Below, one piece after another: positions 14,049 through 16,247 of a stretch of DNA of 64,000 nucleotides. Position numbers and translations under genes: made by a program. A model generated the notes under the pieces. The model searched no databases, was not told the DNA's origin, and saw nothing but the letters and a program-made list of their open reading frames with translations. This DNA comes from Saccostrea cucullata (taxonomy: Eukaryota). The DNA is taken from positions 248,001-312,000 of the forward strand of contig NW_026933071.1 in the NCBI RefSeq assembly GCF_032062105.1. Direction: 5' to 3'. Within the stretch, counting starts at the first letter, position 1; the number at the start of each line of letters is the position of its first letter.

Positions 14049-16247
14049 CCGACAAAGCAAGCAGGTAACAATCTTGTCTTCCTGTGCAAGGCTCATTATA
14101 TAAATTGCATTTTATTAGAACTTGGATTTAATTCTACAAGTGGTAATCCTATTAATACTCATACTTCCCTTTCTAAGGAAGAAATTCTTCAAAATCATAT
14201 GCCAGTTTTGAATATTTTTAATATTTCACAGAGCCAAAATGAATTTGAACTACCCTATATATATTGGATTCCGAAACTTCATAAAAATCCTTACAAACAA
14301 AGATACATTGCGGGTTCCAGTAAATGTTCAAACAAGCCTCTTTCGTTACTCCTCACTAAGATATTTACAGTAGTGAAGGAAAAACGTCAAGAGTACTGTG
14401 CAACAATGTATTCAAAAAAGTTATGTGAATCAGATGTGGATACTCAAAAATTCCAAAGAACTTTTGGACAATTTGAAATCACCAGATTTTACCAAAATCA
14501 ACAGCTTAAAGACCTATGACTTTTCATTTTTGTACACAACCATTCTCCACGATAATTAAATTCCAGGCTTTTTGAGATCATTGACTGCTACTTGTTCAAT
14601 AAAAATGGAACTCGTAAATTTACTTACCTGGTCATTGGTCATCTGCAAAATTATTTTGTTAAAAATTCTGATTGCACCCACAAGTACTCCGAAGTTGACA
14701 TCAAAAAGATGCTTGAGTTTCTGATGGACAATATCTATGTGGTTTTTGGAGACCAGATCTTCCAACAATCTATTGGAATTCTCATGGGTACCAATTGCGC
14801 TCCATTATTAGCAGACCTATTTTCGTATTCATATGAAGCAGGATTTGTGCAAATCTTATGCGTGAAAATAAAAAAAAAACTTGCTGTGGCCTTTAACTCG
14901 ACAGTTAGATATATCGATGACGTATTGTCAATTAACAATGGTAATTCCATTCCTACGTCGATACGATATATCCTAGTGAGCTTGAGTCTGACACATCTGT
15001 TTCATACTTGGATATTTTACTTGAAAAAGATGTTAATGGTAATCTAACAACCAATCTATATGATAAACGTGATAAACTTTAAAACTTTTCTATCGTCAAC
15101 TTCCCTTACTTATGCAGCAATTTACCTTCATCACCTGCATACGGAGTGTATATTTCTCAGTTGATTCGATACGCAAGTGCATGCTCTACGTATAAACAAA
15201 TTCTAAAACGAGGTAAATTATTGACAAAAAAAATTGATGAAACAAGAATATCAGCAGTCGTGTTTAAAGTCATAATTTCGTAAGTTCTATTGTCGATACA
15301 ATGACCTTGTCAGCTAATACAATTTATTATTGAATCAAATGTTGACAGACGTTTTTCATACTAATTGTTAGTCAATTATTTGTTCACCGTATTGACGACG
15401 ATTTTTTTCGTTATTTTCCGATCATGACAGAAAGCACACGGCGGGTGTGACTGGTTTCAGGGGATATTCACTTCACCATTGCACCTGATCCCACCTCTGA
15501 TGTTTTAGAGGTCCCTGTTTGCTCTGCTCCTATTTTGTATTGCTTTATGGACTTTGATATTGAATACTGTTCGTTATCTCCATATCCTTCATATATGTGA
15601 CTGGGCGAATTGAACAATTAATACTTATTACAGTGTACAATGTATACAAGAATGTTTATAATGTGATTTGATTATATGTTTATGATATGTAATTATAATG
15701 TAAAACAATGTTCTGCAAACATATATGTCAAGTAAGGTAAAAATATCTTTGATTGTAATTTTACATGTTATCGATATCCGTTGGTTCCTCTTTTCTTGCT
15801 ATCTGGTATTTAAATTGTTCCTTTTTTCTATTTTGTCTAATAAATCTAATAATCGATTGCCTACTTTTTCACCAGTCATGTGTGAGGAGCACCGTTTCTT
15901 TGGGTTTAAAATTTTGAAAAGATAACCATTCATTACAAAGAAAGAAATATTAACTAAAGCCATGTCAAACAAGTTCACTAATTATTTTGTATGTGATTTT
16001 ATTTTCAGCGCTGTTCGTCTACATGTTTAAGGTTTCCGCCTTACTAAAGAAACATTTTCGGAAACTCTCATACACGTGCTCATTTGAATTGTTCCGTTTC
16101 ATGTTTCTCATTGGACTTTTTCACTCTCAGACTTGCTACAGATGTAGATTAGTTCGCTGAGAATGTCAAATCATTTGAGAATCAAAATATCAAAGATAAA
16201 ATTACTTTATGTAAAGGGTGAAGTTAACAAACAGTGATCAATATATA

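Follow-up and report, generated by a model that had tools for sequence, protein, structure and literature searches.

Penelope-like elements (PLEs) carry minimal, dimeric type I hammerhead ribozymes that act as palindrome-linked dimers (Cervera and De la Pena 2014, PMC4209133); a suggested function is the production of circular templates (PMC4209133). Insertion of the anole PLE in vitro does not require its hammerhead, which cuts only with protein (PMC11167929). Naiads are described as lacking canonical hammerheads, some of them containing hammerhead cores that fit no descriptor (PMC8557442). Outside this group, Ty1 RNA dimerises via the palindromes PAL1 and PAL2, located beside a Gag-bound pseudoknot (PMC6844567). 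Here, we describe a Naiad motif whose fold consists of a three-way junction, a 5-bp pseudoknot, an invariant CGGGUG/CACCUG helix (P2), the strings CAG and GCUYAC, and two palindromes.

The window, a stretch of 64,000 nt of Saccostrea cucullata DNA, had been annotated from its letters as holding a GC-rich motif of about 90 nt in six Naiad copies. This holds, as a blastn search of the window with one copy (15433-15524) recovered the other five (E 8e-25, 2e-20, 2e-19, 4e-10 and 0.014), the last being the old copy at 43.4 kb, with no other match below E 0.6. The motif had also been placed behind the reverse transcriptase (RT) stop in all six copies. It does lie there in five, but the 56.4-kb copy begins at unit position 3117, past the stop at about 3085, and is without RT sequence; this fragment (56408..56595) holds little more than the motif, as had been said of one copy. 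The host was correctly named as a Naiad. The largest window copy encodes a broken Naiad RT with YWIPKLHK and YIDD, and 46 long RT proteins are its relatives. A 3,307-nt genomic unit (from L280), to whose 3' end all six window copies align and to which they are 60-93% identical, encodes an N-terminal GIY-YIG (GLIYVGET), then CSC and DKA, with one frameshift; this is the Naiad order of a GIY-YIG endonuclease with CCHH-type cysteines, a CxC and an RT with DKA. The family also has the 5' truncations and partial tandems (pLTRs) of Naiads, and the nearest published consensus among those viewed was Naiad_Sglo of an oyster. The first 130 nt of the unit and of many published consensi share CUGCUGGUGGA ... 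CCCCGAGG ... CGUCGCCC; this 5' end is conserved from corals to hemichordates and may be a second RNA or promoter element that overlaps the start of the ORF.

The core is intact in a single copy, at 37.8 kb, and decayed in the other five. The motif of the 37.8-kb copy (37835..37927, minus strand) starts with the P1 5' strand (37918..37927, pairing with 37835-37846), followed by the invariant P2 5' strand CGGGUG (37912..37917, pairing with CACCUG at 37871-37876) and the 10-nt, loop-less palindrome 1 (37902..37911), a predicted intermolecular helix. The conserved core strand (37887..37901) comprises GCAG (37898-37901), the pseudoknot strand PKa (37893-37897) and GCUCAC (37887-37892). Next come the 6-nt, loop-less palindrome 2 (37877..37882), likewise a predicted intermolecular helix, the second P2 strand, the pseudoknot strand PKb (37866..37870), which is the sole linker of the P1/P2/P5 junction, and the P5 hairpin (37847..37865), in which one base is deleted in this copy. 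The index copy (15432..15524, plus strand) divides as follows, the parts behind PKa being placed by position in the sequence: P1a 15432-15441, P2a 15442-15447, palindrome 1 15448-15457, CAG 15458-15460, PKa 15461-15465, the GCUYAC position 15466-15471, palindrome 2 15476-15481, P2b 15482-15487, PKb 15488-15492, P5 15493-15512 and P1b 15513-15524. Here both palindromes are damaged, the base before CAG is lost and GCUYAC is changed. This motif lies in a 5'-truncated, frameshifted copy of RT and 3' UTR (14059..15589, plus strand; 87.5% to the unit), to which a further piece is added at 12566-13237 (80.9%). The remaining copies are a truncated one at 19039..19503 (plus; motif from 19351, P1b partly deleted), the youngest at 37770..38387 (minus; 93.1%), which bears the intact core, the old one at 42357..43460 (plus; RT 60% and motif region 70%, motif from 43359), the 56.4-kb fragment (minus; motif 56470-56568, with a 4-nt insertion before PKa) and a truncated one at 63765..63990 (plus; decayed motif at 63883-63972).

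Elsewhere in the window are four related B-box (TRIM-like) gene copies that are 73-79% alike, several of them broken (11372-12557, 35064-36608, 39119-39936 and 51364-52875), and single-exon ORFs for a fatty-acid desaturase (1087-2250), a secretin-family receptor (21018-22454) and a rhodopsin-family receptor (56990-58174). A further single-exon ORF (22895-25276) is a 793-aa frame without a Pfam match. Two inverted pairs of internally repetitive, partly palindromic arrays (5723-6151/6734-7178 and 28106-29556/32467-33440) resemble the ends of foldback or Helentron-type elements, and a 3-kb duplication links 2649-5735 to 7874-10522.

Genome-wide, exact motif cores number 4,008 + 3,974 = 7,982, against 0 for the reversed control. 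The 44 off-type matches in the same genome appear without exception to be mutated members of a single lineage, to which the genomic cores of S. cucullata seemingly all belong. The motif starts about 60 nt 3' of the ORF stop, with CGGGUG 71 nt behind it, and insertions stop at a fixed 3' point some 66 nt past P1: counted from CGGGUG, it falls at +151 in 11 of 45 copies and within +139 to +160 in most. Of 30 copies that retain a 5' end, 26 have a 3' end fused seamlessly in front; the whole motif is present in 14 of these 26 pLTRs and absent from 12. Full units also stand in tandem, 3,313-3,314 nt apart, which places a motif about 160 nt before the 5' end of a unit. Head-to-tail full-length units were seen at G000:C22741:105925-112576 (three 5' ends) and C12737:39112-42450 (two).

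The 5' truncation points of 89 young copies spread smoothly, with no single-position peak (three rows, two cut by locus ends and one duplicate, were dropped). Fifteen of the 89 fall within the motif, each at a different place, and the three preceding 98-nt bins hold 9, 6 and 11. Likewise, ends did not pile up at the motif in three oligo-dT RNA-seq runs (3,598-5,656 reads; fragmented and unstranded), in which passenger copies dominate and about three quarters of the reads continue into unrelated sequence. Neither of these looks, both indirect and weak, gave a cleavage footprint. The pLTRs run through the motif and up to 1.2 kb past it. This rules against a cut linear RNA as template and leaves an uncut tandem RNA or a closed circle.

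For a blind scan, we used a pattern that fixed four strings only (CGGGUG, CAG, GCUYAC and a CACCYG-type string) and left the other parts free. It gave at least 121 metagenome matches, 20 in prokaryote genomes (GTDB) and 0 strict ones in viral contigs; 10 loci of the S. cucullata genome were added. The viral contigs yielded eight relaxed matches without the pseudoknot (1-2 of 5 pairs) or an RT relative, and 19 of the 20 GTDB matches were GC-rich chance matches, L139 being animal-like DNA with an RT. By their flanks, the matches listed and the added loci comprised 128 AT-rich and 23 GC-rich sequences, the latter being chance controls. Pseudoknot pairs were 4.5 of 5 in the AT-rich set versus 2.0 in the controls, and palindrome pairs 4.6 versus 2.2. 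Among the matches listed, 41 of the 128 AT-rich loci had an RT match (40 on the same strand and upstream), compared with 0 of 23 controls, many motif loci being truncated copies or short sequences. The AT-rich matches came mostly from two related families. Clustering yielded 28 medoids, and five sub-lineages were added by hand. The resulting 33 lineage representatives, drawn from the matches listed, include about seven decayed copies that were kept in. Ten inspected representatives that are not of mussel type had no Naiad RT in the 89-700 nt upstream, and intact motifs without a Naiad RT nearby were seen in L016 (1-700), L021, L033, L041, L068, L087 and L128. The ORF piece before the L016 motif resembles the N-terminus of a non-LTR retrotransposon. 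The motif may thus occur in elements besides Naiads.

In these 33 representatives, the five bases behind CAG pair with the five behind CACCUG in 144 of 165 cells, against a null of 93 +/- 5 that reached the observed value in 0 of 20,000 trials. The ten bases behind CGGGUG are self-complementary in 155 of 165 cells (null 81.5), and 25 of the 33 have a perfect 6-nt palindrome ending 0-1 nt ahead of CACCUG (null mean 3.7, maximum 11, with the centre chosen in the same way as for the real sequences). The two palindromes measure 10 nt and 6-8 nt, and their letters vary while the symmetry is kept. For the subset of 13 representatives in which the end of a Naiad RT lies upstream, the values are 62/65 for the pseudoknot and 65/65 for palindrome 1. 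Among 595 column pairs, the ten highest-scoring all belong to the predicted fold: five make up the whole of palindrome 1, three lie in the pseudoknot and two in palindrome 2. Their G values (33-64) exceed the maximum of 29 reached in 150 tree-based simulations, against which the pseudoknot's outer pairs and the third pair of palindrome 2 stayed below significance. A standard pair count gave 92.4% paired, with a covariation of 0.637 versus 0.160. P1 and P5 abut P2 and the pseudoknot strand without a spare base in 15 of 31 sequences (null mean 1.6; controls 0/23), and about 20 invariant nucleotides surround the pseudoknotted junction. Among 16 non-Watson-Crick cells in 20 hand-picked intact lineages, 10 were G-U and 1 was A-C, which points towards a structure of the sense RNA rather than of DNA or cDNA. 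Cumulatively, P1, P5, the 5-bp pseudoknot and the two palindromes are backed by covariation, and P2 by fit and invariance; its lack of variation in the scan set follows from the pattern, which fixed its strings.

These data sustain the central proposal of the initial annotation, a conserved cis-acting RNA structure, with covariation found across lineages. Its outer stem is our P1 and its CCUCUGA/UYRGAGG hairpin our P5, both of which covary, and the variants it pointed out (UUAGAGG versus UCGGAGG, and CUUG/CAAG) are indeed present and preserve the last hairpin. Its AGGGG/CUCCU hairpin had to be given up, pairing no better than the null (70 of 132 cells against 73.5, and 26 of 52 against 28.4), and its GGG/CCC stem is replaced by the CGGGUG/CACCUG helix plus pseudoknot. 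The pseudoknot, the two palindromes and the dimer that they imply had been missed.

The reading of palindrome 1 as an ordinary hairpin was rejected, since hairpins form in a minority of the sequences and its innermost pairs covary. The innermost two pairs leave no loop, yet they covary: in the 13 RT-verified lineages, 26 of their 26 cells are paired, versus a null of 13.9. A-U, U-A, C-G and G-C are all present among them. In the 20 hand-picked lineages, palindrome duplexes had energies of -3.7 to -21.4 kcal/mol, and a hairpin was formed in 5 of 20. As covarying, self-complementary stretches of this kind cannot pair in cis, the RNA likely pairs with a second copy, and judged from the sequences we consider a physical dimer of the motif RNA very probable. 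The palindromes of five of six lineages compared do not cross-pair. Tandem pLTRs would keep a second motif copy at hand. Both palindromes leave the top of P2, so that the strand between them would lie beside the partner's P2; from this geometry, the pseudoknot might form across molecules.

We then looked at the place that the motif takes in other Naiads, reading by eye some 420 nt at the 3' end of every File S5 consensus (PMC8557442); longer UTRs may hide more. The motif is found in 12 of the 54 published consensi: Clytia Naiad-1 and -2, three oysters, Tegillarca, Pinctada, four hemichordate families, and the last File S5 entry, taken as the fish Chatrabus. As published consensi were chosen by RT, the invariance of CGGGUG, CAG, GCUYAC and CACCYG seen there by eye is unbiased; in Tegillarca, a P2 G-U pair is changed to G-C. 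Eight consensi (Mgal, Bpla, Mphi, Scon, Mmer, Movir-1, Chem-4 and Mley) have a twister-like P4/L4 fold at the 3' end, which in the bivalves (mussel, clam) carries palindromes in place of P1. We name the parts of these folds by what we take to be the twister letters. Six nematode Naiads (Nbra-1, -2, -3, Hcon, Hpol and Asuum) carry a complete hammerhead in non-circular C-S-G order at the same slot, and at least seven other consensi (three from Acropora, Pomphorhynchus, two from Octopus, and Eulimnadia) carry a rearranged one that opens with the stem II strand and closes with CUGANGA. To our knowledge, hammerheads in C-S-G order were known from two metagenome sequences only. They cleave (PMC10085705), and the nematode Naiads that have them were reported as without canonical hammerheads (PMC8557442). 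No consensus among the 54 showed two kinds of fold in the 3' stretches viewed by eye. In the S. cucullata genome, the twister-like motif is absent, and the unit has no sense-strand CUGANGA.

The slot thus holds hammerheads or twister-like folds in other Naiads, and PLE hammerheads are dimeric; this points to a self-cleaving ribozyme. The swapping of one self-cleaving class for another at a fixed place is the logic behind the finding of pistol, hatchet and twister-sister, and the roughly 20 invariant nucleotides at the pseudoknotted junction fit the published selection profile of ribozyme candidates (PMC10085705). We therefore favour, with a probability of about 0.55, the prediction that the motif is a dimer-dependent self-cleaving ribozyme of a new class in the 3' UTR and pLTR of one Naiad group, which makes the processing element guessed at in the initial annotation the best reading. 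At even odds we put the fuller version, in which the dimer is obligate and possibly domain-swapped, the palindromes count two copies, the CAG-pseudoknot-GCUYAC strand completes the partner's site, and unit-length RNA is cut for circularisation. Beyond the demonstrated secondary structure, strand, position and tandem context, we infer catalysis and circularisation as follows. In a head-to-tail transcript, the pLTR copy and the 3' copy, 3.3 kb apart, would pair through both palindromes, and the CAG-PK-GCUYAC strand would dock on the invariant P2 helix, which may be that of the partner. Cleavage of both copies would follow, and the unit-length RNA released would probably be closed to a circle. 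The RT would enter this circle some 150 nt past the point where P2 starts, and copy more than once round it, giving seamless pLTRs, while lone truncated motif copies in host transcripts would mostly stay uncut. Against such a ribozyme, the motif matches the core of no known class, the folds of sister lineages are candidates read by eye in the published 3' ends, and ten ribozyme-neighbour motifs of similar logic showed no cleavage (Eckert et al., PMC10085705). The scattered 5' ends of young copies, the pLTRs that run past the motif, the RNA-seq without a pile-up, the ten representatives without a Naiad RT upstream and the dispensable hammerhead of the anole PLE (PMC11167929) also speak against it.

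The main rival, also foreshadowed in the initial annotation as an RT-binding signal, is a non-catalytic signal for dimerisation and protein binding. Here, the palindromes would join two RNAs or both ends of a tandem RNA, and a dimeric RT-endonuclease would read the invariant core and then start reverse transcription nearby or jump templates. We regard this as a strong rival, though less probable than the ribozyme. It fits all the structural evidence equally well; the constant 3' end point of insertions, some 66 nt past P1, and the missing cleavage footprint in insertion ends and RNA-seq are in its favour, and the little cross-pairing of palindromes between lineages would suit family-specific recognition. 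Precedents are the palindrome-driven dimerisation of Ty1 RNA beside a Gag-bound pseudoknot (PMC6844567) and a PLE protein predicted to be a dimer (PMC11167929). Still, Naiads with related RTs do without the motif and, as read by eye in the published 3' ends, carry ribozyme-like folds instead, which would be hard to explain if the RT needed it; and the protein-binding region of the anole PLE is the first 172 nt of the ORF, not the pLTR (PMC11167929).

A role in RNA stability or translation, as a nuclease block or a cap-independent translation element in the pLTR ahead of the ORF, with the dimer being secondary, is quite unlikely. The compact pseudoknotted junction and its place about 160 nt before the 5' end of the unit in tandem arrays agree with it, but two covarying, loop-less palindromes are left unexplained, and 12 of 26 pLTRs lack the whole motif. 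Finally, it is highly improbable, and already largely refuted, that no RNA structure is involved and the motif reflects common ancestry (plain conservation of a repeat) or a signal in the DNA, such as palindromic binding sites for proteins: core conservation among 19 genomic copies is only 0.905 versus 0.86 in the flanks (RT coding 0.93), a weak contrast that is expected within a genome because dead copies decay neutrally, and single-strand folding energies are often unremarkable (z -3.8 to +0.3), but the letters of the pseudoknot and palindromes change between lineages while pairing stays, GC-rich chance matches show no such pairing, and the G-U bias is strand-specific.

If the favoured reading is true, the known ribozymes would gain a genuinely new class, which resides in the retroelements of oysters, hydrozoans, acorn worms and fish and counts thousands of native copies in animal genomes. 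As a design of RNA quaternary structure, an obligate dimer built on two palindromes would be unusual. It would also bear on the question raised by the describers of Naiads, namely how pLTRs form in elements 'without hammerheads' (PMC8557442). Should the motif, which ranges from jellyfish relatives to fish in a very common animal retroelement, turn out not to cut, it would still give telomerase-related retroelement RTs with an IFD their first defined RNA signal, and would offer a natural RNA homodimer that phylogeny strongly supports.

As far as Rfam and the literature covered reach, the fold is new, and it is set apart from known classes feature by feature, with circular and non-circular permutations considered. 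The Rfam search that the initial annotation had called for returned no family at the motif, whether for the window, for 20 loci or for the tandem unit, save a chance lncRNA match (E 7.4, L059), and no ribozyme family over the motif at E up to 5-10. No description was found in the full-text literature (subscription papers not covered), including a search with literal 15-17-nt pieces; the portion consulted of a 2026 retrozyme preprint mentions Naiads solely as a clade, and the sections covered of Craig et al. 2021 (PMC8557442) make no mention of the motif.

Hammerheads in any permutation were rejected: none of the 33 representatives has CUGANGA at CACCUG, the sense strand of the unit is free of it, and Rfam gave no match. 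HDV-like ribozymes are marked by a nested double pseudoknot with P3/L3, P1.1 and a J4/2 cytidine; here, the covarying helices yield neither P3/L3 nor a second pseudoknot, and Rfam gave no match. Twister-sister, hatchet and hairpin ribozymes likewise had no Rfam match, and their class-specific features are lacking; GCUYA resembles what we take to be the twister-sister site, whose partner strand is absent here. The initial annotation had proposed a tandem-GA, K-turn-like junction, but its 5' GA occurs in 2 of the 33 representatives and is lineage-specific; the conserved tandem G-A pairs of a K-turn are thus missing, as are the conserved tandem GA quartet and AAR loop of a SECIS. The SECIS of Naiads is likewise a structured element directly behind the ORF, but our motif is found in lineages outside the selenoprotein Naiads listed (PMC8557442).

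Twister cleaves at a U-A step in L1. Its L4 forms pseudoknots with L1 and L2 (PMC6154101), whereas our motif has one pseudoknot only, its P1 abuts P2 without an internal loop, and Rfam gave no twister match. The mussel and clam twister-like folds share with our motif the slot, a G-rich strand followed by a palindrome, a second palindrome and a CAC strand closing the helix; they carry P4/L4 and a UAA site, of which the motif has neither, and its conserved strand sits between the palindromes. AG-N5-GC, present in 33 of 33 representatives, where the scan pattern forced it, and by eye in the 12 published carriers, resembles A32 G33 ... G40 C41 of pistol (PMC6154101), and the pseudoknot strand is predicted to stack between two helices as in pistol. 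The pistol pseudoknot, however, has 6 bp instead of 5, and its partner strand is the P1 hairpin loop, that of the motif lying in a three-way junction; pistol has an unpaired G-U linker between P3 and P2, where the motif has no such linker and no P3 pairing is possible, U stands at the place of G42, and Rfam gave no match. This likeness is a lead for an active-site guanine, not for membership.

Ty1 offers another retrotransposon RNA that dimerises and combines palindromes with a pseudoknot (PMC6844567), but it is an LTR element with Gag and particles, its structure lies at the 5' end, PAL1 pairs with PAL2, and it shares no sequence or fold with the motif. The PLE hammerheads differ in having the CUGANGA and GAAA core, which the motif lacks, and one palindrome instead of two, while the motif has a pseudoknotted three-way junction with an invariant helix. 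Like them, it sits at the pLTR and 3' end and has palindromes without room for a loop, and its dimer is predicted to form in tandem transcripts.
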